A stretch of 64,000 nucleotides of DNA from Puia sp. (GCA_035937535.1 DASZHV010000002.1:31639-95638); one strand, 5' to 3'; positions 73-62,391 are shown, numbered from the stretch's first letter. The notes: generated by a model from the letters alone, not told the origin. Numbers and translations are program-made.

Positions 73-1323
73 ATGCAAGAAAAAGAATTACTCCCTCATC
101 TTTTCCGCACTGAATACAGGAAAATTATTTCGGTACTGGTACGGCATTTTGGATTTGAACAGTTTGCCTTTGCTGAAGATATTGCCAGTGATACATTTTT
201 AATTGCTGCGGAAACCTGGGGTCTAAAAGGATTGCCGGAAAATCCGGTTGGCTGGCTGTATACAGTTGCTAAAAATAAAGCCCGTGACCTGGTAAAACGG
301 AATGCTATTTTCCAGCATAAAGTCCGTGTTGCAGTTATCAGCGATGAAAAATCAGATCCAGAAACCGATATTGATCTTTCTGAAGAAAATATCAAAGATA
401 GTCAGCTGCAGATGATGTTTGCCATTGCCGATCCGATCCTGTCCATGGAATCTCAAATTGCGCTGATCCTTCGAATTTTATGCGGATTCGGTATTGAAGA
501 AATCGCTGATGCCTTTTTAACCAATAAGGAAACCATTCACAAGCGACTTACCAGGGCAAAGGAAAAAATAAGATCAGCTCAAATTAAAATTATTTTACCG
601 TCATCAGGTGAGATCAATCAAAGAGTGGATGCCGTTTTAACAAGTTTATATCTTTTATTCAACGAGGGTTACTATTCCAGCAATCACGATTCGGTTTTAA
701 GAAAGGATTTCTGTCTGGAAGCCATGAGGCTTACGCTGCTGCTTATTGAAAATGAAAAGACAAATAAACCCAGTGTGGACGCTTTGTTTGCACTCATGTG
801 TTTTCATTCATCCCGCTTCGATGCGAGAGTAGATGACAAGGGAGAAATCATCCGCTATGAAGAGCAAAATGTCGAGTTATGGAATGAAGAATTGATCTTA
901 AAAGGCCATTATTATTTAAATAAAGCGTCCAGGGGAAAGGAATTAAGCAGTTATCATATTGAAGCTGCGATCGGTTACTGGCATACGATTAAAGATGACA
1001 GCACCGAAAAGTGGGACAATATCTTACAATTATATAACCAGTTATTATTTATCAGGTATTCACCAGTAACCGCTCTTAACCGGACCTATGCGCTTTCGAA
1101 AGTAAAAGGTAAGACTGTCGCTATTGAAGAGGCAGAGAAACTTGGTTTAACGAATAATCATCTCTACCACGTGTTACTCGGCTATCTTTTTACCGGAAGT
1201 GAAAATACAAAAGCAGTCCGGCATTTAAAAACTGCGCTGAAACTGGCAAAAACGGATAGGGAGAGAAACCTAATCAGAAAAGACCTGAAGAAAGTATGGG
1301 AGTATGGGAGTATGGGAGTGTGA
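73..1323 (+). CDS. ECF sigma-70 factor with long C-terminal TPR-like extension (ECF42/DUF6596 type)
   Basis: Region 2 AEDIASDTF...WLYTVAKNKARD, region 4 LRILCGFGIEEIADAFL...IHKRLTRAKEKI, then LYLLFNEGYY and TPR-like helices. ATG 73 preferred over ATG 7, which overlaps the upstream CDS. Confidence 0.9.
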   Translation: MQEKELLPHLFRTEYRKIISVLVRHFGFEQFAFAEDIASDTFLIAAETWGLKGLPENPVGWLYTVAKNKARDLVKRNAIFQHKVRVAVISDEKSDPETDIDLSEENIKDSQLQMMFAIADPILSMESQIALILRILCGFGIEEIADAFLTNKETIHKRLTRAKEKIRSAQIKIILPSSGEINQRVDAVLTSLYLLFNEGYYSSNHDSVLRKDFCLEAMRLTLLLIENEKTNKPSVDALFALMCFHSSRFDARVDDKGEIIRYEEQNVELWNEELILKGHYYLNKASRGKELSSYHIEAAIGYWHTIKDDSTEKWDNILQLYNQLLFIRYSPVTALNRTYALSKVKGKTVAIEEAEKLGLTNNHLYHVLLGYLFTGSENTKAVRHLKTALKLAKTDRERNLIRKDLKKVWEYGSMGV

Positions 1324-1363
1324 AAATTATTCCCATACTCCCATACTCCCATACTCCCATACT
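1293..1363. repeat. Inverted pair of 8-bp tandem arrays: (AGTATGGG)x3 plus a partial copy, and (CCCATACT)x4
   Basis: Read directly: 1293-1322 and 1331-1363, between convergent genes. Confidence 0.95.
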
Positions 1364-1367
1364 TTCC

Positions 1368-1628
1368 TCAGCTTTCCTTCGTGTGTAAAAAGCTACTGAC
1401 TTTTTCCTGTGCAGTGTGTAGAAAATCGCTTCCCTTAGCCTGAGCCTGGGCAAGAAACTCAGCACCTTTAGTTTTGATCGTTTCTCCCAGAGCCGCAGCA
1501 TCCAGATGTTCATGCATGGATGCAGGAACTTTTTCCTTAATATATTCCATCATATGATTTGCAGCATCCTTTGCCTGCTCTGCGGTCAACCCGATTTTTT
1601 CCTGTAATGATTGAATTAATGCGTTCAT
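1368..1628 (-). CDS. Small helical hypothetical protein (86 aa)
   Basis: ATG start with A-rich upstream context; amphipathic N-terminus MNALIQSLQEKIGLTAEQAK; fills the gap between genes. Confidence 0.75.
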   Translation of the reverse strand: MNALIQSLQEKIGLTAEQAKDAANHMMEYIKEKVPASMHEHLDAAALGETIKTKGAEFLAQAQAKGSDFLHTAQEKVSSFLHTKES

Positions 1629-1705
1629 AAAAAAAGATTTAGACAGGAAATTTAATGAAATAACACGATTTAAATCATGTTATTCCCGGAATTTACAATT
1701 GCTTA

Positions 1706-4831: not shown

Positions 4832-5131
4832 AACTAAAGTTTTAAGTTGTTTTTAATTGTTTTAATAACTGCCGTATAATTATTCAATTTTGAATATTCA
4901 GAATTATAGTTTTTTATATTGCCTCTAACCCTTGAAAATTAGTAGGATTTCAAAATTCGGGTAAATCTTACTAAAAATTCAATTTTGATAGCTGAGGTTG
5001 GATAAGTAACAGTTAAATAACCTCTAAGTAGGTCGAAAAAACATTTATTTCAGTTCGTTTACCAATACCACAAAGACTACAGTGGTTTATCAGGAGATAT
5101 CCACTGTAGGTCTGACAAAATTCAGGCCATA

Positions 5132-5602
5132 TTATGGTTTGAGCATTGACCAATGTACATTCCTAAACTGCCATCCACGAAACGTTTTTTCAGCCAGAGC
5201 GCTGAAATAACCTCCCTGCGATAATTTTCTTCCGGACGAATCGATAATCTCTTCATGAAAACCAGCCCCTATAGATGCCAAATTTGGAGTCAACGGATCT
5301 ATACGAAGATGATCCCATTGAAGACTTATCTGACGGAAAGTCTTTACCAGGGTATCTCTTATATATCTATTGGCGCTTTGATAGTCCTTGAATGCAAGCC
5401 CTCCCTCAACAGCCATAAAAAAACCAGGGTTGTCTTCAAAATAATCAAGCCAGGCAATAGGCCCTTTTACTGAAAGATCCGATACAATATGTTCTGTCAT
5501 TCTGCTTACGCTGTCTTTTACATCATCTGCATCTTTTGAACTTAGTGACGAATTATTAGAATTACAGGAAAAAAAGAAGATTAACAACCATATATATTTC
5601 AT
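5132..5602 (-). CDS. NTF2/SnoaL-like lipoprotein
   Basis: Lipobox FFSC; C-terminal GWQFRNVHWS strand pattern. Confidence 0.7.
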   Translation of the reverse strand: MKYIWLLIFFFSCNSNNSSLSSKDADDVKDSVSRMTEHIVSDLSVKGPIAWLDYFEDNPGFFMAVEGGLAFKDYQSANRYIRDTLVKTFRQISLQWDHLRIDPLTPNLASIGAGFHEEIIDSSGRKLSQGGYFSALAEKTFRGWQFRNVHWSMLKP

Positions 5603-7660: not shown

Positions 7661-8368
7661 AAGTGTACCGAATCGTTCATAATCGTGAAAATTGGTTCTG
7701 GTGGGTTGCCAGGACCATTCTGAGACATTATTATCATAATCTATCCGGTAAAAATTAGCCCGCCAGCGGGTCCCTTTCACGGGTGGTATATTAGTCATGG
7801 GCTTAAGAAGTTTGTAGGGAATAAAAAACTCCGCGGTCCAGGCAACAATATCAGTATTATTTTTGATCACATGGGTAGCGTGCCGGGTTTTTCGATTGCC
7901 CTCATAATGCCAGGGTCGCCATCCGAGGAAATTTCCCTTAATATTAGGAACGAGTATTGGCAATTCATAGTTGAAAGGTGAAAGTTCATATTCAAAATAC
8001 ATGGGCACTGTTTCATCTGTCCAAAAAAACGCCTCCACTACATCTTCATTAAATAAATCTGAATAATCTTCCTTCAATGTAGATGTAAGTTTATTGTCCT
8101 GGCAATAATACAGGCAATAAATACCTGAATCTGAATACAGTATTTTCATCTTTGTCAGGTAAATATCTCCGTGTTCATTCCTTTTGAGCAGTGGGAGCCA
8201 TTTTTCTTCATTCCAGTTAACGGCAGTTCCATCTCCCGTGATTTCAAAATCTTTTGTTTTGTTTACGGACAGTACGGAAGAACTGAGAGATTGGCTCCGA
8301 AGGGTCAATGCTGGCAGTGAAACAAAAAATAAAAACGAAAGTAAAAATACCCTGTAAGTAATATTCAT
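7649..8368 (-). CDS. Secreted carbohydrate-binding family 9-like protein
   Basis: Signal peptide; ITGDG...W, DVVEAFF, YFEYELSP, WTAEFFIP, WRANFYRID. Confidence 0.8.
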   Translation of the reverse strand: MNITYRVFLLSFLFFVSLPALTLRSQSLSSSVLSVNKTKDFEITGDGTAVNWNEEKWLPLLKRNEHGDIYLTKMKILYSDSGIYCLYYCQDNKLTSTLKEDYSDLFNEDVVEAFFWTDETVPMYFEYELSPFNYELPILVPNIKGNFLGWRPWHYEGNRKTRHATHVIKNNTDIVAWTAEFFIPYKLLKPMTNIPPVKGTRWRANFYRIDYDNNVSEWSWQPTRTNFHDYERFGTLLFQ

Positions 8369-8394
8369 ATATTCCTTTCCGTGGTTGTAATTAT

Positions 8395-9288
8395 CTATTT
8401 ATCGAGCATGGGGAATAATTTTTTTATGTCATCATCATTGGGCTGAGCACCGTATTCACATATTTCAAATTCTTCTATGTACTGTACTTTATCAGCCCGC
8501 TCCTTACCATACCATTTTTCAAGAGATGCCCTGGCTTCGGGTTTGACCGGTCGTGCATTTTTTTTGTATAGCCATTTTATACGATCCTCTTTGCTTTGAG
8601 GTACCTCTTCGGAATAATGTCCGATCCACGGCAACCATTCGTACATCTGGGATTCATGGGCATCCAGGGCAGCAATTTTTTTATCATACGTACTGGTAAT
8701 ATCCACCACAATGTCGGGACGAAAAGGATTGGGTCTTTGAAAATGATCTTCATAATATATGAACACCGGATTTTTTTTCAAAGCAGGTGTTTCAGGTTCG
8801 ATATTGGGTACTGCGACCATGTATGCTGCATCCTGTACCAATACGCCCGTATACCGGTGATCAGGGTGATAATCATTCGGACGCGGAGCAAATACCAGGT
8901 CCGCATTCCATTCACGAATCTCTTTAATGATCTCCAGCCTTACTTCAAGAGTCGGCATAAGCAGCCCATCGTGGTTGTCAAGTACGTCATATGTAATGCC
9001 CAGCCGTTTTGCAGATTCCTGTGTTTCTGCATACCTCCTTTTTGCAAGTTCCTTCCCTTTTAATGTCTGATGACCAGCATCTCCATTTGTTACAGAAACA
9101 AATTTTACAGCATAACCCATCCGGGCAAAAAGTGCAGCTGTGCCACTACTCTTTTCATCACAATCATCCGGATGTGCCCCGAACATGATAATACGGATCT
9201 TTCCGTTATCCTGCTGCGCGTTTACTGAAACCGAAATGCAAATATGCAACAGCATTATAAATAAAAAATTCCTGCAAAATATTTTCAT
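8395..9288 (-). CDS. PIG-L/LmbE family deacetylase (secreted)
   Basis: GAHPDDCD, TNGDAG, DYHPDH, LDAHESQ; signal peptide VNA-QQ. Confidence 0.92.
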   Translation of the reverse strand: MKIFCRNFLFIMLLHICISVSVNAQQDNGKIRIIMFGAHPDDCDEKSSGTAALFARMGYAVKFVSVTNGDAGHQTLKGKELAKRRYAETQESAKRLGITYDVLDNHDGLLMPTLEVRLEIIKEIREWNADLVFAPRPNDYHPDHRYTGVLVQDAAYMVAVPNIEPETPALKKNPVFIYYEDHFQRPNPFRPDIVVDITSTYDKKIAALDAHESQMYEWLPWIGHYSEEVPQSKEDRIKWLYKKNARPVKPEARASLEKWYGKERADKVQYIEEFEICEYGAQPNDDDIKKLFPMLDK

Positions 9289-10607: not shown

Positions 10608-13061
10608 ATGCTCAGAAATTATATAAAAATTGCCTGGCGAAACTTTCTTAAGTACCGCACATTCAGCATAATCAATATTATCGGGTTATCTTTTTCTGTC
10701 GCGTTTTGCCTGTTGTTATTTTTTTATATCCGCAAAGAACAGTCCTACGATACTTTCTCTGAAAATAAAGACAGGCTGTTCAGATTTGAAAGCACCAATT
10801 TTTGGAGTTCCCCTGAAAGCAAACCAGCAAACCAACTTTTTAGCTTTCTTACAAAAGATGATAAGACCGACAATATCCTGACAACTTCTCTGATCATAGG
10901 CAGAGATATACAACAAAATTTCCCCGAAGTAAAAGGTATAGTACGTTTTCAAGACCAGGGCAACGGTCTTATCAAATTGAATAAAGAAGTTTATAAGGCT
11001 GGTCATATCGTATATGCAGATGATAATTTTTTTAAGACTTTCTCTTTCCCGATCATAAAAGGAAACAAGGAAGCTTTGAAATCGTCCATTAAAAACGTTG
11101 TCATATCCGAAAATACAGCAAAGATATATTTTAGCAATTCAGATCCCATCGGCAAAACAATTGGCCTCGTCAGCGACAGCACAAGTCTTTTTACCATTGC
11201 AGCAGTTGCTGAAAATCCTCCGGATAATTCAAGCATCGTATATGATGTTGTAATTCCTCTTCAGTCCGATCCGGGATACGCTGAAAATATAAAGCAGGGC
11301 TTTAATCAAAGCTCCCATTTATTGTTTATTGAGTTGAAAGAAGGAGTTTCAATGGCTTCCTTCTCAGATAAATTAAATCTCTGGGCAAAAAAATATTATG
11401 TTGAGCCTTTTGTTTCTACTTATGGTTCATTTCTAAAAGATTTTGATTTCAAAAACTACCGATGGCATTTACGACCCATGGCTGATTGCCATTATAATTT
11501 GTCCGGACCCTGGGGGCATTATACGGATGCGAAGAATATATATCAGCTTGCCTGCCTCGTAATCATTATTTTGCTGATCGCCTCATTGAATTATGTGCTG
11601 CTCGTGATCTCCAATGCTTCTGCACGATCCCAGGAAGTCGGTGTAAGAAAAGTAATGGGTGCCAACAGGAAATCTATTATTATGCAATTTTGGGTAGAAA
11701 CCCAGATCATTATTTCTATATCGGTGATCATCGGATTAATTTTGACCCTTTTTCTTCTTCCATTGTTTGATAATATTATCGGAAATGACCTTCGTATCGA
11801 TAATATTAACTGGAAAGACATCATTCCAGCTGTTATGATTCTAAGTTTCTCACTGGGTATTCTGGCAGGTTATTATCCGGCACTGATTATTTCAAAAATG
11901 AAGCCCGTATCCATCCTTAAAAGTTTCAGGACTTTTAAAATTAATCCCTATTTTTCAAAGGTGCTGGTTGTATTGCAATACACAGGATCTGTGGTACTAA
12001 TGATATCTGCCTTCATCATTACCCGGCAGATGCGCTTTATAAACAATAAAGATCTGGGGTTTGACAAGGAGCAAGTGCTTATAGTTTCTAACCCTGTCTG
12101 GAATATGGATTTTACTAAACATGCGAGAGAACAACTGGGAAATTTTGCCAGATCACAACCTTATATTTCATATTTCTCTGGAATGAATGGCGGTCTGAAT
12201 GGTGCAAATAATATGAACGGTTTTAAGTTAAACGGGGAACAAAAATGGAGAAAACAATTGTCGGTCGATTATGATTATTTTGAAATGCTCGGCATCCATT
12301 TTTTACAGGGCAGATCTTTTTCCAGGACTTTTTCAACCGACAGTTCCAGGAAAAAACGTCCGGCCGTAATCAACGAGTCTTTATTAACATTACTGGGCGA
12401 TAAAGCGAAAGTTGGCGAATATTGCGAACCCATTGATGCTACCATTATTGGTGTTGTACAGGATTATAATTTTGAGACGCTATCAAAAAAAATCGAACCT
12501 GAAGAACATGTTCTCGGACTGAATTATGAAAGTTCCTTTATGTTCAAAATAAAAGCCGGACAAATTCCAACAGCGATTTCTGGTATCGGAAAAGAATGGA
12601 AAAGTTTCACAAACTATCCATTCGAGTACACGTTTCTGGATGATACCATTAATAAAATGTACGAATCAGATAAAAGATGGGAGAAAACAATTCAGTTCTC
12701 CTGCTTTTTTGCCATTTTCATTGCATGTATGGGTTTGTTTGGTCTTTCTGCTATCAATGCAATAAACCGTACCAAGGAAATCGGAATTCGCAAAGTGCTT
12801 GGAGCTAGTGTGAGAAATATTGCCGTCACACTTTCATCAGGATTTATGAAGATGGTAATTATCGCTATAATCATCGCCACGCCGCTTTCCTATTGGATCA
12901 TGAGCAAATGGCTGGACGATTTTGCATACAGAATAGACCTCAGCTGGTGGATGTTTGTCGTAGTTGGTGCAATTGCGTTTATAATTGCGTTGGCAACTAC
13001 AAGTTTTCAAACCATCAAGGCAGCTGTTGTTAATCCGGTGGAAAGTCTGCGGGCAGAATAA
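10608..13061 (+). CDS. ABC transporter permease (MacB/FtsX-like, duplicated domains)
   Basis: MLRNYIKIAWRN start; QEVGVRKVMGA and KEIGIRKVLGAS; ends NPVESLRAE. Confidence 0.93.
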   Translation: MLRNYIKIAWRNFLKYRTFSIINIIGLSFSVAFCLLLFFYIRKEQSYDTFSENKDRLFRFESTNFWSSPESKPANQLFSFLTKDDKTDNILTTSLIIGRDIQQNFPEVKGIVRFQDQGNGLIKLNKEVYKAGHIVYADDNFFKTFSFPIIKGNKEALKSSIKNVVISENTAKIYFSNSDPIGKTIGLVSDSTSLFTIAAVAENPPDNSSIVYDVVIPLQSDPGYAENIKQGFNQSSHLLFIELKEGVSMASFSDKLNLWAKKYYVEPFVSTYGSFLKDFDFKNYRWHLRPMADCHYNLSGPWGHYTDAKNIYQLACLVIIILLIASLNYVLLVISNASARSQEVGVRKVMGANRKSIIMQFWVETQIIISISVIIGLILTLFLLPLFDNIIGNDLRIDNINWKDIIPAVMILSFSLGILAGYYPALIISKMKPVSILKSFRTFKINPYFSKVLVVLQYTGSVVLMISAFIITRQMRFINNKDLGFDKEQVLIVSNPVWNMDFTKHAREQLGNFARSQPYISYFSGMNGGLNGANNMNGFKLNGEQKWRKQLSVDYDYFEMLGIHFLQGRSFSRTFSTDSSRKKRPAVINESLLTLLGDKAKVGEYCEPIDATIIGVVQDYNFETLSKKIEPEEHVLGLNYESSFMFKIKAGQIPTAISGIGKEWKSFTNYPFEYTFLDDTINKMYESDKRWEKTIQFSCFFAIFIACMGLFGLSAINAINRTKEIGIRKVLGASVRNIAVTLSSGFMKMVIIAIIIATPLSYWIMSKWLDDFAYRIDLSWWMFVVVGAIAFIIALATTSFQTIKAAVVNPVESLRAE

Positions 13062-15389: not shown

Positions 15390-16229
15390 ATGAGACAACA
15401 CCAGTTCATTACATTTTTTATCATATTACTATTTTGCAGCTGTCTGGCTCACAGACAGGGAATGTATCTAAGCCCGATGGATTCTCAAACCATACCTTAT
15501 CATACAATTCCATTAAAATCGGATTCCCTGAAGAGTGCTTTTTATGGAAGTTTAATATATTCAACCGGAACTGCCAATGATCAAGGTCAGGACTGGGTTC
15601 GTGCTGGTCAGGCAAGCATTTACCGGAGTCACAATCTGGGTAATGTCCAGGCATACTATGGAGGCAATGTTACTCTTGGCACTTACGGGTTGTCCGATTT
15701 TTATAATTCGCATTATAAACACAGAGGAGGCTGGTCAACATCAGGGTGGGGTATTCCCATTGATACATTCTATCATATCCCCGGCAGGAAGTATTCCATT
15801 GGAAGCTATGGAATTTCGGCCGGTATTAATGGGGTGAAAACTTTACGTCATTTAGAATGGAGATACCTGGGTTTCGAAACTTCTTTGCAAAAAGAATTTG
15901 GAGATTATTATGAATTCAGAAAAAATCTGGTGGATACTGCCGCCAATATCATATTCAAAAATAATCTTACCGGAACAATCGGGATTTATACAGAATCCCT
16001 TTGGAGAAATCGATATGGGACGCAATATGGATTGAAGTTCTCCATGAATATGCTGGTCAACCCTAAATCTGAATATACCATGCAGAATACTTATGGTATT
16101 TTCCCTATTTCTTATTTTTCAATGACTTTTCATATTACTACAAAACAATTCACAGGGTTTATGCAGGGAAATTTTGGAACAAAGGCAGCCAGTTTTCAAA
16201 TTGGCACGAGTTACAGAATTGGTAAATGA
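15390..16229 (+). CDS. Hypothetical lipoprotein, possibly beta-barrel
   Basis: Lipobox FCSC; aromatic beta-rich sequence ending FQIGTSYRIGK. Confidence 0.7.
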   Translation: MRQHQFITFFIILLFCSCLAHRQGMYLSPMDSQTIPYHTIPLKSDSLKSAFYGSLIYSTGTANDQGQDWVRAGQASIYRSHNLGNVQAYYGGNVTLGTYGLSDFYNSHYKHRGGWSTSGWGIPIDTFYHIPGRKYSIGSYGISAGINGVKTLRHLEWRYLGFETSLQKEFGDYYEFRKNLVDTAANIIFKNNLTGTIGIYTESLWRNRYGTQYGLKFSMNMLVNPKSEYTMQNTYGIFPISYFSMTFHITTKQFTGFMQGNFGTKAASFQIGTSYRIGK

Positions 16230-16357: not shown

Positions 16358-17806
16358 ATGTCAAAACGAAACATTCCTTGCCTGCAAATAATTCTAGTAG
16401 TATTTGGAATTTTATTCATGGTTTATTGCAGGAAAACAAATTCCCAACAGAACCTTCAACCTCTTCCACCAGCCCAGGGTATACCCGTCAATGTAACAAT
16501 TGATCCGGAACATCCTTCTTTTACCATTGCATCAAATTATCTGGGACTCAGTTTTGAAATGACGGCAATTACTGACAGCAATTATTTTAATCCCGACAAT
16601 CCAACTTTTGTACATTTAATAAAAAATCTGGGTACGGGAATTTTTCGAATTGGCGCCAACGGTGTTGATAAAACGTTCTGGACCGGAAAACCACGACAGG
16701 TTTCAACTCCTGTTGATTCTATTAGTACGACGGATATTGACAGATTCAGTCGTTTCATCAAGACCATTCAATGGAAAACGATTTTTGGACTGAATATGGG
16801 CGGCAATTTTAATCCGGCAATAACTGCAGATGAAGCAAGTTATGTATCCAAGGATTTATCCGGGTTACTTCAGAGTTTTGAAGTAGGTAATGAAGCAGAT
16901 CTTTACCCGGGAAACGGGTATCGTAATCCCGGTTATTCTGAAACTGATTTTGATGGTGAATGGCAACAATATTATAATGCGGTTGAATCAGCAACGCCCA
17001 ATACAGTTTTCTCAGGCCCAGCGTTTGCATACAATCAGACATGGCTGTATAATTTTGCCAGACAGGAAAGCAGTCATATAAATGAATTGACCATTCACTA
17101 TTATCAGGCAGGGCCTGGCACGGATCCTTCCATCAATCTTAATACTTTACTTGCGCCGAAAGCAGACAGTGCCATGGATAAATTTGGAAATGCCGTATAT
17201 GCTATAGCCCTAAGTGTGCAAACTCCTTACAGGGTAGCAGAATGCAATTCGATATATGGCGGTGGAAAAACAAATGTGAGTAATACATTCGGAGCTTCTT
17301 TATGGGCCATCGATTTTATGTGGAGGCTTGCTTATATGGGTTGTTCAGGTATTAATTTTCATGGAGGCGGTAATGGTCCTTATTCGCCTATTAGTGATTC
17401 AGCCGGAATCTTTTTTGCAAAGCCAGAATATTACTCCATGTTATTCTTTAAGAACGGAGCACAGGGAAGGGTGCTGCCATGCAATGTAAATGCAGGGACC
17501 GAAAATGTTACAGCTTATGCAAGTAAAACAGCCGATGGAACAATTTATGTTAGCATTTTGAATAAGGAACCGCAAACAGATGTTGCTGTTACACTTCAAA
17601 CGGGAGTTTCTGCACGCTCGGTTACATTGAATTCGCTGACTGCTTCAAATCTGAATGCAACCAGCGGTCTGGTTCTTCAGGGATATACATTGAATCCTGA
17701 TGGCAGTATTATGACTTCATCCTTACAATCATATACGGCAGGTGAGTCCGGGATTACGGTGAATATTCCCGCGTCAAGTGCTATGCTTGTGATTATTCAT
17801 CCTTAG
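16358..17806 (+). CDS. Glycoside hydrolase family 79 (beta-glucuronidase/heparanase-like) lipoprotein
   Basis: LGLSFE, FRIGANGVD, EVGNEADLY (acid/base), RVAECNSIYGGG (nucleophile), VSNTFGASLW, GINFHGG. Confidence 0.88.
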   Translation: MSKRNIPCLQIILVVFGILFMVYCRKTNSQQNLQPLPPAQGIPVNVTIDPEHPSFTIASNYLGLSFEMTAITDSNYFNPDNPTFVHLIKNLGTGIFRIGANGVDKTFWTGKPRQVSTPVDSISTTDIDRFSRFIKTIQWKTIFGLNMGGNFNPAITADEASYVSKDLSGLLQSFEVGNEADLYPGNGYRNPGYSETDFDGEWQQYYNAVESATPNTVFSGPAFAYNQTWLYNFARQESSHINELTIHYYQAGPGTDPSINLNTLLAPKADSAMDKFGNAVYAIALSVQTPYRVAECNSIYGGGKTNVSNTFGASLWAIDFMWRLAYMGCSGINFHGGGNGPYSPISDSAGIFFAKPEYYSMLFFKNGAQGRVLPCNVNAGTENVTAYASKTADGTIYVSILNKEPQTDVAVTLQTGVSARSVTLNSLTASNLNATSGLVLQGYTLNPDGSIMTSSLQSYTAGESGITVNIPASSAMLVIIHP

Positions 17807-17899
17807 TTATTCATAATCCGCCGTCTTTCGCTAAAATTAAAGAAAGCAAAAATGGAGATTGGTATAACCCAATCAATATGCAGTTGTTTTAAGGCTTTA

Positions 17900-18163
17900 T
17901 TTCGTAGTCGCACCGGAGCCTCCGAAAGATTTTTTCCAGATCACCACTTCAGTTGAAACTTATATTTCCGGCATATTCCTTTTAGCGTTCTTTCGGGGTT
18001 CTTTCAGGTTTCTTGCGGAATTCCGCAATATACCTAGGAGAAACCTGAAAGAAACCTGAAATGAAAATGTCAGGATAGCATACCAAATATGGATTCAGGC
18101 CAATCAATCAATTCAAAACCATTAAAAAATAAATCCTTCGTAGCCTCCGGTGTGACTACGAAA
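17900..18163. repeat. Nested inverted-repeat element (REP-doublet or MITE-like)
   Basis: 33-bp arms 17900-17932 and 18131-18163 are inverted copies (29/33 by my alignment). Internal inverted arms 17991-18012 and 18040-18061; 16-bp perfect palindrome 18013-18028. Confidence 0.8.
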
Positions 18164-18246
18164 GAAATGTTAAGGATGATGGTATGTTTGTCTATGTGTC
18201 GTCATAAGGCATGCGATTTGCCTTTTAATAATTATAAACATTTTTT

Positions 18247-18567
18247 ATGAAAAAGTTAATGATTCTATGCATTGTAAGTGCATTCTGCTATAGTGCTCTC
18301 AGCCAAGGTAGTATGGTAAAAAAGTCTGATACGAACATGTCATTTACAAATAAAATGGAAAAGGAATATGTAATGATGAAAGATGGTTTGGCATTACATG
18401 TAAAAAATGGCAATACAACGACACTTAGTAGTCCATTTAAATTAAACAATGGAGGCCTTGTCATGCCTAATGGAACTATACAATTGTCGGACGGGACTAC
18501 TAAAAAGCTTAAGGAAGGAGAGTATATCGATATAGATGGACAAATGGGTAAGACTAAAAATAAATGA
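18247..18567 (+). CDS. Small secreted DUF6799-like protein
   Basis: Signal peptide; VMMKDG...VMPNGTIQLSDGTTKKLKEGEYIDIDG. Confidence 0.8.
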   Translation: MKKLMILCIVSAFCYSALSQGSMVKKSDTNMSFTNKMEKEYVMMKDGLALHVKNGNTTTLSSPFKLNNGGLVMPNGTIQLSDGTTKKLKEGEYIDIDGQMGKTKNK

Positions 18568-19812: not shown

Positions 19813-19864
19813 CATAATCGGTATACTAAAAATCCGCCTTCATTTTTATTTCGGCGGGCAAATG

Positions 19865-20232
19865 TGGAGGTGAGGAGAATCGAACTCCTGTCCAAACATA
19901 TTCTTCAAAAGCTTTCTACATGTTTATTTGCTAATTGATTGTCGGGGAAAGACAGGGTAGCAACAAACCAATCATTCCCTTAGCTGAATCGTCTTGAGCT
20001 CAGATCACAGCCTTTCTGAACAGCATCCTCTTTTGTTATTAGTCGGCGGTGCAGCTTGGTAACAGGCGAACCTGCCACACGGCCCGAATGACTACTTAAT
20101 CACTGATTAGGCAGCCATGGCATACTGTGTATTGCCATTTGAGATTTGAATATTCAGATTAACGTGCTAATTATCCAACGCACGACATGCTTATACTTTC
20201 AAAGATCTACGCTGTCAATACCAGGCACCCCC
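19865..20232 (-). ncRNA. ssrA: tmRNA (transfer-messenger RNA)
   Basis: 5' GGGGGTG pairs with 3' CACCTCC-A, with G3-U70 alanine identity. T-arm GGAGTTCGATTCTCC. Tag frame GGC AAT ACA CAG TAT GCC ATG GCT GCC TAA = GNTQYAMAA at 20136-20107. Confidence 0.97.
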
Positions 20233-20246
20233 GATAAATCAACCTG

Positions 20247-20254
20247 CAAATTTA
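20247..20254 (-). promoter_or_regulatory. Bacteroidota -7 promoter box for ssrA
   Basis: TAAATTTG on the minus strand, 14 nt before the mature 5' end. Confidence 0.75.
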
Positions 20255-27302: not shown

Positions 27303-27459
27303 AATGTGAAAAATGTGTATTTGTGGGATATGTGATAAGGTAGGAATGAAATGTAAAATCTAATGTAAGATTAGAAAGTTAAATTTTCCACGAATTCAAT
27401 TTTTAATTCAATTTTTCATTTCATCTTCACATTCCTACATTTTCCACAATTCCACATTT
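27303..27459. repeat. Degenerate inverted short-repeat arrays (AATGTG-like / CACATT-like)
   Basis: AATGTGAA AAATGTG TTTGTGG TATGTGA after the polX stop; TTCACATT CCTACATTT CCACAATT CCACATTT after the kinase stop. Confidence 0.65.
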
Positions 27460-43845: not shown

Positions 43846-44268
43846 ATGAAACCAGTATTCGCAAACTTTAATCTTAGGAAATCAGCCTCCGTCCTGGCAG
43901 CCGCAGCGTTATTAACGCTTGGTTCTGCAAAATTGCAGGCAGCACCGATCATTGAAAAAATAATTAATCCAGCCGACAAGCAGGTAACTGTCAAATTTGT
44001 CGGAGCCACTGAAAACAATCTGGTATTCCACCTGGAATTTGATAACAAATCAGGTGAAAAGTTTTATCTCATTATTAAAAATGATGCAGGTGAAATCGTT
44101 TATCAGAATGCCTACAATGACGTGCATTTTGAAAAGAATATCCGTTTACCAAAAGAAGATACAGAAATACGTCCAACATTTATAATCCGTACAGCTAATG
44201 AACAGATTGAAAAGAAATTTTCAATCGACCGTAAAGTATCGGAAGACTTTGTAGTAACTTCTTTGTAA
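43846..44268 (+). CDS. Secreted hypothetical beta-sandwich protein
   Basis: Signal peptide ending LQA; FYLIIKNDAGEIVY; own terminator. Confidence 0.8.
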   Translation: MKPVFANFNLRKSASVLAAAALLTLGSAKLQAAPIIEKIINPADKQVTVKFVGATENNLVFHLEFDNKSGEKFYLIIKNDAGEIVYQNAYNDVHFEKNIRLPKEDTEIRPTFIIRTANEQIEKKFSIDRKVSEDFVVTSL

Positions 44269-44281
44269 GATATTTCTTTTC

Positions 44282-44317
44282 AATAAAAAAGCCCTGCTGT
44301 TGCGGGGCTTTTTTATT
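44282..44317. terminator. Bidirectional intrinsic terminator
   Basis: AATAAAAAAGCCC...GGGCTTTTTTATT. Confidence 0.9.
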
Positions 44318-44454
44318 GGGTTATGGCTTATGGGTTTTGTGGGTTATGAGCTATGGGTTATGGATTAGTTTAAATATGTAATTATAATTTCATCCAGCAA
44401 ACACCGTAATCCATAACCCATATCCCATATCCCATAACCCATAATCCATAATCC
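44318..44454. repeat. Inverted pair of 7-bp tandem arrays (GGGTTAT)x7 / (ATAACCC)x7, degenerate
   Basis: 44318-44368 and 44406-44454, between convergent genes. Confidence 0.9.
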
Positions 44455-49513: not shown

Positions 49514-52435
49514 ATGACGCAAAAGCTGAAAGATCTCTCTGCCCGGCTCGAAGGTGAATTTTATGTTGACGAAACAACGAGGATTCTGTATGCAACAGAT
49601 GCCTCTGCTTACCGGGAACTACCCCTTGCCGTTGCGGTACCTAAATCAAAAGAAGACCTGGTGAAGCTTATAAGATTTGCAAGGGAAAATCAGACTTCCT
49701 TAATACCAAGAACTGCCGGCACTTCATTGGCTGGTCAGGTTGTAGGTAAAGGAATTGTTGTTGATGTTTCTAAAAATTTTACAAAAATTATTGAATTTAA
49801 TATTGAAGAAGCCTGGGTGCGGGTGCAGCCAGGTGTGATCCGTGATGAACTGAATCTTTTTTTAAAACCATATGGTTTACTTTTCGGCCCTGAAACTTCA
49901 ACGGCAAACAGGGCGATGATCGGCGGAATGGTAGGCAATAATTCATGTGGTTCCAATTCGGTAGTTTACGGCAGCACGCGGGATCATTTAATGGAAATAA
50001 AGGCTTTGTTAAGTGATGAAAGTGAAGTCTTATTTCATCCGATGAGCCTGGAAGAATTTCATAATAAATGTGAAGGTGAAAACCTGGAATCTTCCATTTA
50101 CAAAACAACCCGAAGCCTGCTTGGCAATTATGATAACCAGCTAGGTATCAGAAAAGAATTTCCAAGGAAATCCGTTGAAAGAAGAAATACCGGTTATGCA
50201 CTGGATATATTATTGGATTCTGCACCCTTTACTGCCGGAGGACCCGATTTCAATTTTTGTAAACTGATCGCAGGTTCAGAAGGAACGCTGGCTTTTATTA
50301 CAGAAATAAAATTACACCTGGTTCCTTTGCCACCCATAGAAACCGGACTATTATGCGTTCATTTCAATAGTATAGATGAAGCCCTGCGGGCTAACCTGGT
50401 TGCGCTCAAATACAAGCCAAGCGCAAGTGAACTAATCGATCATTATATTCTGGAATGCACAAAGGATAATATAGAACAAAGTAAAAACAGGTTTTTTGTA
50501 CAAGGCGATCCCGGTGCAATTCTCGTTATTGAATTTAAAAGAAACAACCGGTCAGAGATTGAAAATATCGTAGGACCTTTAACTGAAGATTTGAAAGTTG
50601 CGGGCCTGGGTTATCATTTCCCTCTTCTATTTGGGGAGGATACAAATAAAATATGGTCTCTGCGAAAAGCAGGATTAGGGCTACTCGGTAATATGCCGGG
50701 AGATTCCAAACCGGTGCCGGTAGTGGAAGATACAGCTGTTGATGTCCATGACCTTCCTGCTTATATTAATGATTTTAACAAACTGCTTACTAAGTATGGT
50801 TTGCATTCTGTTCATTATGCCCATGCCGGCTCAGGTGAAATTCACCTCCGTCCCATCATCAATCTAAAGACAGAAGAAGGGAACCGAATGTTCCGGACTA
50901 TCGCAATTGAAATTGCCGGACTGGTAAAAAAATATAATGGTTCACTAAGTGGTGAACACGGAGACGGGAGACTGCGAGGGGAGTTTATCAAAAAGATGGT
51001 TGGAGAACATAACTACGAACTTTTTAAAATCATTAAAAAAAGCTGGGATCCTCAAAGCATATTCAACCCGAATAAAATTGTTGATACTCCGCCTATGAAT
51101 ACCATGCTCCGGTATACACCTGGGCAAGCAACTCCTGTTTTCAATACTATTTTCCGTTATTATAACCAGGACATTTTACAACATGCAGAACAATGTAATG
51201 GATCAGGAGATTGCAGAAAAACAAAATTATCGGGTGGGACCATGTGCCCATCATTCATGGCAACAAAAAATGAAAAAGATACAACGCGTGCAAGGGCCAA
51301 TATTTTGAGAGAATTTCTGACAAATTCAGAAAAGCTCAATCGCTTTGATCATAAAGAAATTTATGAGGTGATGGATCTTTGTCTGAGTTGTAAGGGATGC
51401 AAGTCTGAATGTCCCTCCAATGTGGATGTGGCCAAACTAAAAGCAGAGTTTCTTCAGCAATACCACGATGTACATGGAGTGCCCTTTCGTTCCAGGCTGA
51501 TTGCAAATTTCAACAGGACACAACAGATCGGATCCGTATTACCTGGTCTTTATAATTTCTTAACGGGTAATGCCATTACAAGCCGGATTATTAAAGGTAT
51601 TTCCGGGTTTGCCGTGGCCCGTTCCCTTCCCACCCTTTCGAAGCAAAGTCTGCAGAAATGGTATAATAAAAATTCAAAAGGAAAAAGTAAAAAGGAAAAA
51701 AGAATGGTTTACTTATTCTGTGATGAATTCACCAATTACAATGATACTGAAACAGGCATCAAAGCTATTCTCCTTCTTGAAAAACTGGGATACGAAGTTG
51801 TCATTCCAAATCATGAAGAAAGCGGCCGGGCATGGTTGTCTAAAGGGCTACTAAGGGATGCAAAGATAATTGCAAATAAAAATATTTCTCTTTTAAAAGG
51901 TCTGGTGAATAAAGAAAATCCTCTTCTTGGCATTGAACCCAGTGCGATTCTTACTTTCCGGGATGAATATGTGGACCTGGCCGATGATGAACAATTTGTT
52001 GCGGCCAAAGAACTATCAAAGAATGTATTTCAGATTGATGAATTTATCGCAGCAGAAATAAAACAGGGAAAACTGGATAAAAACTTATTTACAAAAGAAG
52101 CCCGCCTAATTAAACTTCATGGTCATTGTCAGCAGAAAGCATTGTCTTCCGTTTCGCACACTGTTACCATGCTCTCATTCCCCGAGAATTACAGGGTCGA
52201 AACCATTCCTTCCGGCTGTTGCGGAATGGCCGGCTCTTTTGGATATGAAAAAGAACATTATTCCCTCTCGATGCAAATAGGAGAACTGGTATTGTTACCC
52301 GCAGTCCGTCAACAACCCGATGAGGTAATTATTGCTGCACCTGGCACAAGCTGTCGTCACCAGATAAAAGATGGCTGTGGTAAAAAAGCGTTGCATCCGG
52401 TTGAAATTCTTTATGATGCCCTTTTAAAAGCTTAA
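49514..52435 (+). CDS. FAD-linked/Fe-S 2-hydroxyacid dehydrogenase (YdiJ/GlcD-GlcF fusion-like)
   Basis: YATDASAY, GTSLAGQ, GEHGDG, CNGSGDC, CLSCKGCKSECP, HGHCQQK, CCGMAGSFG. Confidence 0.93.
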   Translation: MTQKLKDLSARLEGEFYVDETTRILYATDASAYRELPLAVAVPKSKEDLVKLIRFARENQTSLIPRTAGTSLAGQVVGKGIVVDVSKNFTKIIEFNIEEAWVRVQPGVIRDELNLFLKPYGLLFGPETSTANRAMIGGMVGNNSCGSNSVVYGSTRDHLMEIKALLSDESEVLFHPMSLEEFHNKCEGENLESSIYKTTRSLLGNYDNQLGIRKEFPRKSVERRNTGYALDILLDSAPFTAGGPDFNFCKLIAGSEGTLAFITEIKLHLVPLPPIETGLLCVHFNSIDEALRANLVALKYKPSASELIDHYILECTKDNIEQSKNRFFVQGDPGAILVIEFKRNNRSEIENIVGPLTEDLKVAGLGYHFPLLFGEDTNKIWSLRKAGLGLLGNMPGDSKPVPVVEDTAVDVHDLPAYINDFNKLLTKYGLHSVHYAHAGSGEIHLRPIINLKTEEGNRMFRTIAIEIAGLVKKYNGSLSGEHGDGRLRGEFIKKMVGEHNYELFKIIKKSWDPQSIFNPNKIVDTPPMNTMLRYTPGQATPVFNTIFRYYNQDILQHAEQCNGSGDCRKTKLSGGTMCPSFMATKNEKDTTRARANILREFLTNSEKLNRFDHKEIYEVMDLCLSCKGCKSECPSNVDVAKLKAEFLQQYHDVHGVPFRSRLIANFNRTQQIGSVLPGLYNFLTGNAITSRIIKGISGFAVARSLPTLSKQSLQKWYNKNSKGKSKKEKRMVYLFCDEFTNYNDTETGIKAILLLEKLGYEVVIPNHEESGRAWLSKGLLRDAKIIANKNISLLKGLVNKENPLLGIEPSAILTFRDEYVDLADDEQFVAAKELSKNVFQIDEFIAAEIKQGKLDKNLFTKEARLIKLHGHCQQKALSSVSHTVTMLSFPENYRVETIPSGCCGMAGSFGYEKEHYSLSMQIGELVLLPAVRQQPDEVIIAAPGTSCRHQIKDGCGKKALHPVEILYDALLKA

Positions 52436-52663
52436 AGGTCAAAGCTTAAAGCCTAAAACTTTATTGATCTCTTAGGATCATTCGAAAAAATGGTGGATTA
52501 ATACCTGTAAAGCAAAGGTGGATGCTAAAATATATTTTAACTTACTTATCTTTTTACTTTAGGCTTTAGGCTTTAGGCTTTAGGCTTTAGGCTTTAGGCT
52601 TTAGGCTTTAGGCTTTAGGCTTTAGGCTTTAGGCTTTTTTACTTTTTACTTTTTACTTTTTAC
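52430..52663. repeat. Heptamer arrays: degenerate (GCCTAAA)x4; perfect (CTTTAGG)x11; (TTTTTAC)x4
   Basis: 52430-52457, 52557-52633 and 52636-52663, read directly. Confidence 0.97.
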
Positions 52664-52671
52664 TTTTCAAT

Positions 52672-53790
52672 ATGAACACAAGAAGGGAATTCATTCAGAA
52701 AATCAGCGGCTCCGCAATCGCCCTTTCCGTTTTACCAGGTTACCTGCCGGCTGCTTGTACGACTTTACCTGATGAAGTATACAACGGACCAGTACTAAAG
52801 GTCGCTATCCTGGGTCTCGGCAATTATGCAAACCGGGTAGCCGATGCAATGTTATCCTGCAAAAAGGCCAAACTTACCGGGGTGATTAGTGGAACGCCTT
52901 CCAAAATCAAAATCTGGCAGTCCAAATTCAATATTCCCGAAAAAAATTGTTACAACTATGAAAATTTCGATGCTATAAAAGATAACCCCGATATTGATGC
53001 GGTCTATGTAATCACACCAAATGCTCTCCATTCTGAGGAAGTGATCCGTGTTGCCAGGGCCGGCAAACAGGCGATTTGCGAAAAACCGATGGCTGTAAGT
53101 GTTAAAGAAGGTGAGGAAATGATTGAAGCCTGCAAAAAGGCAAATGTAAAATTATTGGTTGGTTACCGGATGCATTTTGAACCTCATACGCTGGAAATCA
53201 TCCGATTGAGGAATGCCGGTGAATTTGGAAAAATTGCTTTTTTCCAGGGCCTGTCTGGTTTTATTATTGGCGATCCGAATCAATGGCGACTGAATCCAAA
53301 ACTTTCCGGTGGTGGCTCGATGATGGATATCGGCATTTATTCGGTTAATGGTTCCCGTTATATGACCGGAGAAGATCCCATTTGGGTAAATGCGGTGGAA
53401 ACTAAAAACGATCCGGTTAAATTTGTCCAGGGAATTGACGAGACCATTCAATTCCAGCTGGGATTTCCAAACGGAGCCGTTGCATCCTGTCTTTCTACTT
53501 ACTCCATGAACTGGCTGGACCGGTTTTTTCTGGATGGTTCAGAAGGGTTTGCAGAATTGTATCCCGCTACAGGTTATGATCCCACGCAGGGACTTACCCA
53601 TAAAGGCCCTTTGAATTTCCCTTTTATACCACATCAAACGATACAGATGGATGAAATGGCTGCTATCATACTTGAAGGGAAGAAACCCATTTTACCTGTG
53701 GATGGAGAAGAAGCACTTAAGGATTTAAAAATCATAGAAGCGATTTATAAAGCCGCTCAAACCGGCAAGACGGTCAATTTAAAATTATAA
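52672..53790 (+). CDS. Gfo/Idh/MocA oxidoreductase (glucose-fructose oxidoreductase-like), Tat signal
   Basis: TRREFIQK; LGLGNYA; ITPNALH; ICEKPMA; GGGSMMDIGIY. Confidence 0.93.
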   Translation: MNTRREFIQKISGSAIALSVLPGYLPAACTTLPDEVYNGPVLKVAILGLGNYANRVADAMLSCKKAKLTGVISGTPSKIKIWQSKFNIPEKNCYNYENFDAIKDNPDIDAVYVITPNALHSEEVIRVARAGKQAICEKPMAVSVKEGEEMIEACKKANVKLLVGYRMHFEPHTLEIIRLRNAGEFGKIAFFQGLSGFIIGDPNQWRLNPKLSGGGSMMDIGIYSVNGSRYMTGEDPIWVNAVETKNDPVKFVQGIDETIQFQLGFPNGAVASCLSTYSMNWLDRFFLDGSEGFAELYPATGYDPTQGLTHKGPLNFPFIPHQTIQMDEMAAIILEGKKPILPVDGEEALKDLKIIEAIYKAAQTGKTVNLKL

Positions 53791-57237: not shown

Positions 57238-57239
57238 AA

Positions 57240-57261
57240 GGCTAAAGCTTAAGGCGCTAAA
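57240..57261. repeat. Three degenerate GCCTAAA-type heptamers after the GMC stop
   Basis: GGCTAAA GCTTAAG GCGCTAA; same family as 52430-52457. Confidence 0.55.
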
Positions 57262-60907: not shown

Positions 60908-61828
60908 GTGAACAGGTCAACGATGGTGTTTAAAAAACGAATTAATATACTTGCCCTGCTTAGCAAAGCCTTTAAAGGATTCAGAAATAATGATCCATTG
61001 AGAATGGCGGGGGCTACAGCATTTTTCACCACTTTTGCGTTGCCTGCCGTTCTGATAATACTCATACAGATTTTTGGGCTCTTTCTTAGCCCCAGGTTTG
61101 TTACCAGGCAGATATTCCATAATCTCGCAGAAATCGTAGGCAGGAACACAGCAGGAGAATTACATAAAACATTATTTAATGTCCATAACCTGTTCAGAAA
61201 CTGGTATGAGGCTGTGCTGGGTTTTCTTTTTTTGATATTTGTAGCCACCACCCTTCTCAAAGTGATAAAAGATTCCTTAAATCAGATATGGAATATCAGG
61301 AGGATAAGCAATGCAGGCATTAAAATCAGCCTGCTGAACCGGGCGAAAGCAATTTTGGTGATTATGATTGCAGGCATAATGTTTTTGGTTGTTTTACTTG
61401 CAGAAGGAGGTTTGGATTTAATCCAAAAAAATTCGAATGAATTATCTCCTGGTTCACAAGTCCTGGTAAAAACGGTCATCAGACAACTAATTTCACTTAT
61501 TCTGGTTTCCGCATGGTTTTTCTTACTGTTCAAATTGTTGCCGGATGGAAGACCTTCCTTAAAAACAGTTATTGCCGGTGCTTGTTTTACCGGTCTGTTA
61601 TTCACTTTTGGGAAATTATTACTTAAATGGTTATTATCCTATAGCAATATGCAAACGGTCTATGGAGCATCCACCTCGTACATGCTGCTCCTGCTATTTG
61701 TATTCTATTCTTCTTTTATTTTTTATTTCGGTGCCAGCTTCACTAAGGTCTGGGCCGAATTTCATAATCAACCCATTAAGCCGTCAAAAAATGCCGAGTG
61801 CTATGATTGGCATCGGGTTACTATTTAA
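60908..61828 (+). CDS. YihY/BrkB-family membrane protein
   Basis: MAGATAFFTTFALP, IKDSLNQIW, YGASTSYMLLLLFVFYSS; start GTG 60908 or ATG 60923. Confidence 0.92.
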   Translation: MNRSTMVFKKRINILALLSKAFKGFRNNDPLRMAGATAFFTTFALPAVLIILIQIFGLFLSPRFVTRQIFHNLAEIVGRNTAGELHKTLFNVHNLFRNWYEAVLGFLFLIFVATTLLKVIKDSLNQIWNIRRISNAGIKISLLNRAKAILVIMIAGIMFLVVLLAEGGLDLIQKNSNELSPGSQVLVKTVIRQLISLILVSAWFFLLFKLLPDGRPSLKTVIAGACFTGLLFTFGKLLLKWLLSYSNMQTVYGASTSYMLLLLFVFYSSFIFYFGASFTKVWAEFHNQPIKPSKNAECYDWHRVTI

Positions 61829-61839
61829 CTAAGAAACCT

Positions 61840-62268
61840 TTATTTCGGCTTGAATTCCATTTTTACTCCAATGCCCTTGCCCGCTTTCTTTTGCTCCGGG
61901 GTTTGATAAATTGTCTTTGTCATGGTCCCCAGGAATTTCCCGCCATATTTCAGATAACTGATGGAATCTGATTTTTTGATAATGGTCGCTTTATCGATAT
62001 CAGCCTGTGTTGGAATTCTGTCCAGGTATTGTGTTAAATACTTTTTTGCCATATGGTGATCCACATTGGTTTTTTCAATCTGACCCATTGGGATTTCTTT
62101 CTCAGGAAATATTTTTGATACAGAGATCCTTGAGGATGTTTTCCGTTTGGCGGGCACTTTTGGCTCTGCTTCTTTTGCCTGTCCAGGATTTGATTCACCA
62201 GCCTGAACTGCTGCTTTTGATTTTTGTGCCACTGTTAATATGTTTAGGTTCCAGGTAAATATACGCAT
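61840..62268 (-). CDS. Basic hypothetical protein
   Basis: Lys-rich ORF filling the gap between genes; start uncertain. Confidence 0.65.
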   Translation of the reverse strand: MRIFTWNLNILTVAQKSKAAVQAGESNPGQAKEAEPKVPAKRKTSSRISVSKIFPEKEIPMGQIEKTNVDHHMAKKYLTQYLDRIPTQADIDKATIIKKSDSISYLKYGGKFLGTMTKTIYQTPEQKKAGKGIGVKMEFKPK

Positions 62269-62283
62269 AATAAAAAGGACGGG

Positions 62284-62391
62284 TAATTGTTAATGGTTAA
62301 TGGTCAATTGTTAATGGGATTTTGGTAAATTGTTGTTCAAACTATATTCACCATACTTCATTGACAATTAACCATTAACCATTGACTATTT
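62284..62391. repeat. Inverted heptamer arrays (TAATGGT)x5 / (ACCATTA)x5, degenerate
   Basis: 62284-62318 and 62357-62391, between divergent genes. Confidence 0.85.

Follow-up and report, generated by a model that had tools for sequence, protein, structure and literature searches.

Arrays at gene junctions in a Puia contig

The stretch of Puia sp. DNA analyzed here (GCA_035937535.1 DASZHV010000002.1:31639-95638; 64,000 nt, referred to below as the window) carries short tandem arrays at seven loci in or against the spacers between genes. At five of these loci the arrays come as oppositely oriented pairs whose members lie 7-95 nt apart, and at the other two there is a single array. The basic unit is an inverted pair of arrays bracketing an intergenic spacer, not a lone oriented array. 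A first-pass annotation made from the sequence alone had pointed to these loci, and all of its arrays exist where it had placed them, as we saw by calling arrays with Tandem Repeats Finder (TRF) or, for two degenerate ones, from an inverted repeat or the sequence. A Pfam scan of 10 window open reading frames (ORFs) beside arrays backed seven gene names, these being a sigma factor, RseP (M50 with PDZ), PolX (HHH with PHP), a histidine kinase, a beta-lactamase-family hydrolase, an FAD oxidase and a Gfo/Idh/MocA protein; the names GMC and FAH are labels from the first-pass annotation, outside that scan. The tmRNA gene (19862-20232, minus strand) was the sole Rfam match in the window, nothing else having matched. 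The window's closest relatives, at most 95% identical in amino acids, are uncultured Chitinophagaceae that carry the annotation Puia sp. or "Bacteroidetes bacterium", and the window's DNA is present in soil metagenomes.

For comparison we assembled 80 loci around Gfo orthologues (one genome per species) and 80 loci around rseP from metagenomes, which with the window came to 2.17 Mb in 161 sequences from related Bacteroidota (loci of relatives are labelled L001 and so on). Genes in this sample are long non-overlapping ORFs, a crude form of calling, and counts of independent sites were obtained by clustering the flanking proteins. The arrays are real and non-random: 12 arrays of period 6-9 are present in the window, whereas 100 dinucleotide-preserving shuffles of it gave 0.17 on average and at most 2, and a 50-kb E. 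coli control treated alike had zero arrays of period 7-8. That they are a product of chance or of assembly is a suspicion that the metagenomic origin of the window, and the breaking of short-read contigs at arrays, might raise; we give it practically no weight, as the shuffles exclude chance, the independent metagenome contig L081 has an identical rseP array, and like arrays occur in dozens of independent assemblies, isolate genomes included.

The first pair (1285..1371) lies at the convergent junction between the sigma factor ORF (7..1323) and an 86-aa ORF on the minus strand (1368..1628). Its 5' arm, 3.4 copies of AGTATGGG (1293-1319, TRF), falls within the last codons of the sigma factor ORF, and its 3' arm, 4.1 copies of TCCCATAC (1331-1363, TRF), ends 4 nt before the stop of the 86-aa ORF; the pair forms an inverted repeat of 43 nt that is 91% complementary. 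At 20311-20345 a single TRF array on the minus strand, 4.4 copies of ACTCCCAT with the minus-strand reading ATGGGAGT, begins 5 nt past the stop of rseP (20351) and is separated by 79 nt from the 5' end of the tmRNA downstream (20232), and it shares its unit (AGTATGGG) with the array at 1293. A good Bacteroidetes -7 promoter motif, TAAATTTG, is found nearby on the same strand (20233-20260), ~18 nt upstream of the tmRNA 5' end, and is conserved in L082, L083 and L085. The convergent junction of PolX and the histidine kinase holds a degenerate AATGTG-like pair (27305..27459), too degenerate for TRF, which forms a 62-nt inverted repeat (27311-27372 / 27398-27459; 71% complementary) with no C in its 5' arm and no G in its 3' arm.

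Between 44317 and 44454 lies a pair consisting of seven copies of TGGGTTA (44317-44367) and 6.4 copies of TAACCCA (44407-44451), both called by TRF, which leaves ~3 nt to the stop codon of the beta-lactamase-family gene (44457, minus strand). A canonical two-way intrinsic terminator, AAAAAAGCCCTGCTGTTGCGGGGCTTTTTT (44285..44314), stands between this pair and the stop of ORF 43846..44268, and a terminator also adjoins the arrays at the orthologous sites in L001, L003 and L041. The most elaborate locus separates the FAD oxidase/Fe-S gene from the Gfo/Idh/MocA gene, with both arms and the loop on the plus strand. Its 5' arm, five copies of AAAGCYT that match at 75% (52427..52461; AAAGCTT in TRF), covers the final two codons of the FAD oxidase gene together with its stop (52433-52435). 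Its 3' arm (52557..52667) comprises 11.6 copies of CTTTAGG with 100% matches (52557-52637) followed by 4.6 copies of TTTTTAC (52636-52667), both by TRF, and stops 4 nt short of the Gfo/Idh/MocA start codon (52672). Alignment of the loop revealed a conserved block, GGATGCTAAAATATATTTTAACTTAC (52520..52545), so that the CTTTAGG array is placed between this block and the start codon. The block reads CTGAAATATTATTTTAAC in L001, L005, L007 and L041 and is diverged (CCTGAATTTTAATATATTACAG) in L006, L008, L011, L014 and L015, and a related block is found even in relatives that have no 5' arm. It may be a promoter, operator or alternative promoter of the Gfo gene; a motif scan of the FAD oxidase-Gfo loop gave no match in the block to the Bacteroidetes promoter pattern TTG-N17-21-TAnnTTT(G/T).

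Directly 3' of the stop of the ORF called GMC is a degenerate, unpaired plus-strand array, AAGGCTA AAGCTTA AGGCGCTA (57238..57261), which is the second GCCTAAA-type array of the window and too degenerate for TRF. The last pair (62284..62390), 4.9 copies of TAATGGT (62284-62317) and 3.6 copies of CATTAAC (62359-62383), separates divergent genes and presents a C-rich, G-poor strand upstream of both starts (62268 on the minus strand, 62392 on the plus strand); it recurs in L005. The window thus holds at least five different units, and GGG runs occur only in AGTATGGG and TGGGTTA.

Inverted pairing and folding

The first-pass annotation had treated these loci as one class with a common period, and the larger sample agreed: period 7 accounted for 209 of 369 arrays in the 2.17 Mb, followed by period 8 with 67, and the geometry was common as well. 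Most arrays of period 6-9 (260/329, 79%) fell in the 16% of the DNA that is intergenic. Of these intergenic arrays, 109 (42%) had an inverted partner within 400 nt, compared with 2.7% expected by chance, and only 26 had a separate direct partner. When two arrays shared one junction, they were inverted copies of the same unit in 36 cases, direct copies of the same unit in four, and of different units in 24. Beyond 1 kb within a locus, arrays of the same unit were inverted in 36 cases and direct in 31, and because the ratio of 36:4 at one junction gives way to 36:31 at that distance, inverted pairing is a local property. Pairs were present at 8.1% of convergent, 3.7% of tandem and 3.2% of divergent junctions (counts not collapsed for orthology), and arm lengths within pairs were weakly correlated (rho 0.24).

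The pairs fold, on either strand, as long hairpins with stems of up to ~40 pairs and z-scores from -3.5 to -14. In the window these are the hairpins at 1285-1371 (-66.7 kcal/mol, z -14.1), 44317-44454 (-59.2 kcal/mol, z -7.3), 62280-62392 (-40.9 kcal/mol, z -7.0), 27311-27459 (-35.5 kcal/mol, z -4.3) and 52420-52675 (-71 kcal/mol, z -3.5). The first-pass annotation had seen that arrays could be inverted relative to each other, but it missed that they are the arms of hairpins.

Such structures might be RNA hairpins maintained by selection, acting as two-way terminators that dispense with a U-tract, as REP-like protectors of 3' ends, or as RNase III sites that insulate neighboring genes, with the tandem-repeat make-up being merely how the stems evolve. 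The stems are long and stable, pairs favor convergent junctions, and 64 of the 103 stop-adjacent arrays overlap the stop codon (39) or begin 0-3 nt past it (25). In addition, position is kept while both arms switch unit together (see below), and there is an experimental precedent in a heptamer-repeat hairpin cleaved by RNase III (PMC12721329). If stems were selected as RNA, they should favor G.U over A.C mismatches on the transcribed strand. We looked for this in 45 tandem-oriented pairs, whose stems were 91% Watson-Crick, and counted 29 G.U, 31 A.C and 56 other mismatches on the sense strand, so that selection at the RNA level was not detected; nor did the sense strand fold significantly better than the antisense strand (13 sites vs 8). 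RNA-end protection, Rho or antisense control, which the first-pass annotation had offered as possible mechanisms, therefore found no support in these counts. None of the array stems that we read is followed by a T-tract as an intrinsic terminator would be, although canonical terminators with a GC-rich hairpin and a U-tract exist elsewhere in the window, and the 44317 pair is not needed as a terminator because a canonical one adjoins it. The arm lengths are poorly matched. Should the loop block at the FAD oxidase-Gfo junction be a promoter, the Gfo transcript would have the CTTTAGG arm as its leader, and the 5' arm would belong to another RNA. Metatranscriptome contigs covered only the tmRNA well, with one low-depth contig across the 20311 array. 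Taken together, we consider selected RNA hairpins the main rival explanation of the pairs, possible but rather unlikely.

Orientation relative to genes

The first-pass annotation had proposed a strict polarity in which the purine-rich strand of an array follows or overlaps a stop codon and the pyrimidine-rich strand precedes a start codon. This is true of all 12 gene ends that it named in the window, which amount to about seven independent items (five inverted pairs and two single arrays), but in the 2.17 Mb it is a bias and not a strict rule. Because the two strands of an inverted pair read alike, its polarity comes down to one binary choice, namely whether the G-rich or the C-rich arm comes first, and this choice generates the proposed rule at convergent, tandem and divergent junctions alike. 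In the window, G exceeds C in the 5' arm of four pairs out of five; the remaining 5' arm, AAAGCYT at 52427, is purine-rich but not G-rich. The 82 pairs of the sample collapsed to ~46 independent sites, with G>C in the 5' arm at 35 vs 10 (p 2e-4) and a purine-rich 5' arm at 35 vs 11 (p 5e-4), and all nine sites that are truly convergent as judged by reading, including the 27311 pair of the window, were G-first.

The two halves of the rule fared differently against the background of the same DNA. The 40 nt after stops are unskewed (48% purine-rich, 46% G>C), and arrays within 15 nt of a stop were purine-rich in 27 vs 12 gene clusters (p 0.01 vs background), so that the stop half stood. The 40 nt before starts are G-poor (32% G>C), and arrays within 40 nt of a start were pyrimidine-rich in 19 vs 13 gene clusters, which equals the 61% expected from background; the start half is explained by leaders being generally G-poor. 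The bias was strongest in paired arrays (14:3 after stops, 11:2 before starts) and weak in unpaired ones, and the rule as a whole is largely a consequence of inverted pairing. Orientation is independent of replichore, a dependence named beforehand as refuting the rule, since distant arrays of the same unit are divided 36:31 and a pair is identical on both strands.

We asked whether stop codons could have seeded the purine bias, and rejected this: the stop triplet was present on the sense strand only vs the antisense strand only in 14:6 cases (p 0.12), and TAA vs TTA in 6:5. A candidate cause for the features that a mutational origin does not account for (see below) is transcription-dependent instability, in which untranslated purine-rich nascent RNA would form stable RNA:DNA hybrids past the stop.

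Persistence at junctions and genome-specific units

At particular junctions arrays are kept from species to species, with turnover in their copy number and unit. All nine relatives that keep the FAD oxidase-Gfo junction have arrays there, eight of them with both arms, and the unit drifts in both arms from AAAGCCT/AGGCTTT to AAAGCGT and then to AACGCGT or GAACGCT with GCGTTAA. The junction after the GMC-type ORF has arrays in 8 of 11 genomes, and the 44317 junction in four of seven relatives, with units changed, whereas arrays are never seen at 14 of the 19 shared junctions. Copies of the CTTTAGG type range from ~4 to 19 across the relatives tabulated, and the TTTTTAC-type array has two copies in L001 vs 4.6 in the window. 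In L004 (~60-113) the whole loop, including the conserved block, has been lost, leaving a short palindrome, TAAGCCTAAGGCTTA, from the FAD oxidase stop to the Gfo start. Past the rseP stop, lineages differ in bearing AGTATGGG, GCCTTAA-type, AATTGG-type or GTTGAAA-type arrays, and in several distant Bacteroidota the spacer from rseP to tmRNA holds a complete inverted pair.

The units had been described as unrelated in sequence, which is wrong: AGTATGGG is used at two loci of the window, and among arrays more than 1 kb apart, the unit was shared (at most one mismatch) by 26-38% within one locus vs 4-6% between loci of different genomes. Such sharing within a genome means that the description needs correcting: units form genome-specific families. 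In soil metagenome runs X1-X4, contig depth across 52410-52696 climbed from ~10 to 600-1600 (50-100-fold) at the arrays of CTTTAGG and TTTTTAC, where contigs also broke; in those soils these units must therefore recur at numerous further loci or in further organisms. In composition, TAA/TTA was present in 56% of the heptamer units from the 161 sequences and ACG/CGT in 20%, vs 35% and 10% of heptamers drawn at random from intergenic DNA; GGG/CCC and AGA/TCT were depleted, and all of this was independent of orientation. An excess of ATG-containing units was considered and set aside, the enrichment being just 1.4-fold and free of orientation. We also looked for a mirrored order of variant units as a sign of copying from arm to arm, but only 4 of 28 pairs showed it significantly; the exception is L095, in which 36 nt of heterogeneous units are perfectly mirrored.

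Unit sharing between unlinked sites of one genome, together with the constant period, is what would be expected if the arrays served a genome-specific DNA- or RNA-binding factor as a lattice of sites, with the unit co-evolving with that factor. Units at two junctions 6.5 kb apart also tend to change together, a trend that is suggestive only (6 relatives, p 0.1) and that we do not count as concerted change. We regard a lattice as improbable: at least five different units occur within this 64-kb window, the unit drifts continuously among close relatives, and no candidate binding protein turned up, although no search aimed at one was made. Systems that use a single unit, such as GGGAATC and TAACTGA (see below), suit the lattice idea better than the window does.

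The inverted ends also bring to mind small mobile palindromic elements (MITE- or REPIN-like) with heptamer-repeat termini. In L070 (Chryseosolibacter histidini), dispersed elements of ~250 bp with a MITE-like look are found at 2052-2282, 5059-5291 and 8315-8581, and also at 11130, 18803 and 20474; they have similar interiors (GGCATTC..CCTTCGAA..CCGTCAT..) flanked by inverted (AGTCCAC)n arrays. A MITE origin was rejected for the pairs of the window, whose loops are unique within the 2.17 Mb. These pairs also occupy orthologous junctions in different species, every window junction uses a unit of its own, and no transposase domain was found by Pfam in the 10 array-adjacent ORFs scanned, so that we view mobile elements as very improbable here.

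Proposed origin of the arrays

The explanation that we favor, with somewhat more confidence than doubt, is that the arrays are heptamer and octamer microsatellites of the kind known as short tandemly repeated repetitive (STRR) or long simple sequence repeat (SSR) loci, produced by slippage and inverted duplication, whose arms then slip separately and whose orientation is filtered at gene ends. Arrays would be born from local sequence and be lengthened or shortened by slipped-strand mispairing, for which a 7-nt preference has already been noted in bacteria. A partner arm would arise by inverted duplication through fold-back or template switching, and each arm would subsequently slip largely independently. 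Constraints close to genes would then filter the orientations that survive, with leaders before starts staying G-poor, and a further, unexplained preference would place the G-rich, C-poor arm 5', after stops. The slippage and fold-back copying steps we infer from established knowledge of repeat and quasipalindrome mutagenesis. A signature expected of slippage is seen at the Gfo gene, with 11.6 perfect copies in the 3' arm vs the 5-copy, 75%-match 5' arm, and independent slipping of the arms is suggested by the low correlation of their lengths (rho 0.24) and by mirrored order in only 4 of 28 pairs. The perfectly mirrored arms of L095 would be an occasional fresh palindrome, and the stems have a symmetry like that of DNA, with mismatch counts and folding energies balanced between the strands. 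The arrays also have the features of the long-SSR class: copies beyond what composition predicts, dominance of heptamers, a mostly non-coding location, and copy number that varies between relatives. Any effect on the cell is likely a by-product of variable strength, as RNA stability or expression can be tuned by long hairpins and variable-length leaders in 3' untranslated regions (UTRs), 5' UTRs and intercistronic RNA.

Several points weigh against a purely mutational origin. It does not predict the G-first arrangement at convergent junctions (9/9 sites, with the post-stop background unskewed), and under it the stop-codon, G-first half of the bias remains without explanation. The persistence of position (9/9 and 8/11 genomes at two junctions, with 14/19 junctions never occupied) could reflect selection, not inheritance. 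Genome-specific units suggest dispersal, homogenization between loci or a trans-acting factor, as slippage alone does not yield genome-specific unit families. Finally, copy-number polymorphism within populations is not directly readable, because short-read contigs break at arrays. One could also suppose that many Bacteroidota use palindromic heptamer arrays as evolvable, G-first boundary hairpins that terminate, process or insulate transcripts without a U-tract, and whose units are homogenized by a dedicated trans factor or by inter-locus copying; we hold this broader proposal to be doubtful.

Whatever the mechanism, it must reproduce the regularities seen in Bacteroidota: an inverted pair placed at stops and starts, G-first polarity, long persistence at junctions, and genome-specific units. 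On a practical level, arrays break short-read assemblies, and hairpins and leaders of variable length may alter the expression of neighboring genes, for example that of the Gfo-family oxidoreductase behind 11.6 perfect repeats.

Other repeats in the window and its relatives

The window also contains an inverted pair of period-11 arrays, CTTTCAGGGTT / AGAAACCTGAA (17972..18069; fold z -7.1 for 17972-18069), which was absent from the first-pass list. The pair is nested in an outer inverted repeat (17896-17935 / 18128-18167; 40 nt, 85% complementary), giving a nested palindrome of ~270 nt (17896-18167) between ORFs 16358..17806 and 18247..18567, whose outer arms have matches only at the orthologous positions of L082 and L083. 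Two further repeats are coding. A period-15 TRF match (25437-25505) is accounted for by an unannotated 32-aa ORF on the plus strand (25425-25523), MATAKKAAKKKAAPKKKAAPKKKAAKKSAKKK, which is rich in lysine and alanine, looks histone-H1-like and is followed by a canonical terminator. Within ORF 49514..52435, an A-rich array of period 7/14 (51668-51704; also in L001 at 9029, L005 at 8966 and L041 at 8995) encodes a lysine-rich segment, ..KGKSKKEK.., apparently a linker of the FAD oxidase/Fe-S fusion, and lies outside the intergenic phenomenon. Among the relatives, L095 has three near-identical hairpins with three ACGCAAAG units per arm (11954-12010, 12095-12150 and 15392-15447); they follow apparent tRNA 3' ends, in what appears to be a duplicated tRNA-plus-terminator module.

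Comparison with known repeat systems

Heptamer repeats (STRR and relatives) have been without an explanation since 1990. In the literature that we searched, there was no description of such arrays for Chitinophagaceae, and several unit families per genome, the G-first statistic and junction persistence were not found described. REP/BIME and REPIN sequences of Proteobacteria are extragenic palindromes at gene ends that form 3'-UTR hairpins and can stabilize the upstream mRNA; REPs belong to a conserved 20-40 nt family with hundreds of dispersed copies and are tied to RAYT transposases. The stems described here differ in being locus-specific tandem repeats with loops and flanks that are unique in the 2.17 Mb, and a dispersed family of this sort was not found in the window.

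Heptamers are reported to be the commonest long-unit bacterial repeats, and polymerase slippage has been proposed for them (Mrazek 2007, as cited in PMC4679880 and PMC4692102). As far as these accounts describe them, STRR and long SSRs (5-11 nt units) resemble the arrays of the window in being non-coding tandem heptamers with few unit families per genome. The first-pass annotation had compared its arrays with the cyanobacterial STRR, and the comparison is apt in that both are tandem heptamers in non-coding DNA. The host here is one of the Chitinophagaceae, and not a heterocystous cyanobacterium, and the STRR unit sequences are absent, so that the arrays are alike in kind but not members of that family. 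Inverted pairing is described as rare in Nostoc in the account given in PMC4692102, as opposed to the 42% of intergenic arrays paired here.

Another related system is that of the TAACTGA arrays, which have a fixed orientation just upstream of starts in Beggiatoaceae, some cyanobacteria and five Bacteroidetes (MacGregor 2015, PMC4679880); those Bacteroidetes spacers hold other heptamer repeats as well, as in Gramella forsetii (PMC4679880). They share with the arrays of the window a position just before start codons. However, TAACTGA is a single unit with one inverted set among 170, proposed as the site of a translational regulator, whereas in our sample pairs dominate and units vary.

One of the two closest precedents is the GGGAATC repeat of Xanthomonas campestris and X. 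axonopodis, with 70-75 cases per genome of arrays paired on opposite strands in "convergent orientation" (Rehm et al. 2015, PMC4692102). There, the position of a repeat, and whether it is single or an inverted pair, hold across species and length is variable, and the repeats are transcribed, with a function that is unknown (PMC4692102). Like these, the arrays of the window and its relatives are intergenic heptamers in inverted same-unit pairs with the G-rich arm first. The Xanthomonas repeat is one G4-forming unit in a proteobacterium of 65% GC; in Bacteroidota of 40% GC there are several units per genome, most of them G4-incapable, and the arrays lie flush against stop and start codons.

The other closest precedent, the (ATCTTTC)n repeat of H. 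influenzae hmw1A, would best model how the (CTTTAGG)n leader could act on the Gfo gene. This repeat lies between promoter and start, is transcribed, and pairs with a complementary G-rich arm in a long hairpin, which RNase III cleaves (Rapun-Araiz et al. 2025, PMC12721329). The number of repeats tunes expression, and both transcription and the hairpin are required for repeat number to change (PMC12721329). In hmw, a single locus with known phase variation, the repeat arm is 5' and the G-rich arm 3' within one 5' UTR. The polarity of the pairs described here is opposite, and one arm usually lies in the 3' end of the neighboring gene. What was compared is the geometry at the Gfo gene, where the CTTTAGG array stands between the conserved block and the start codon.

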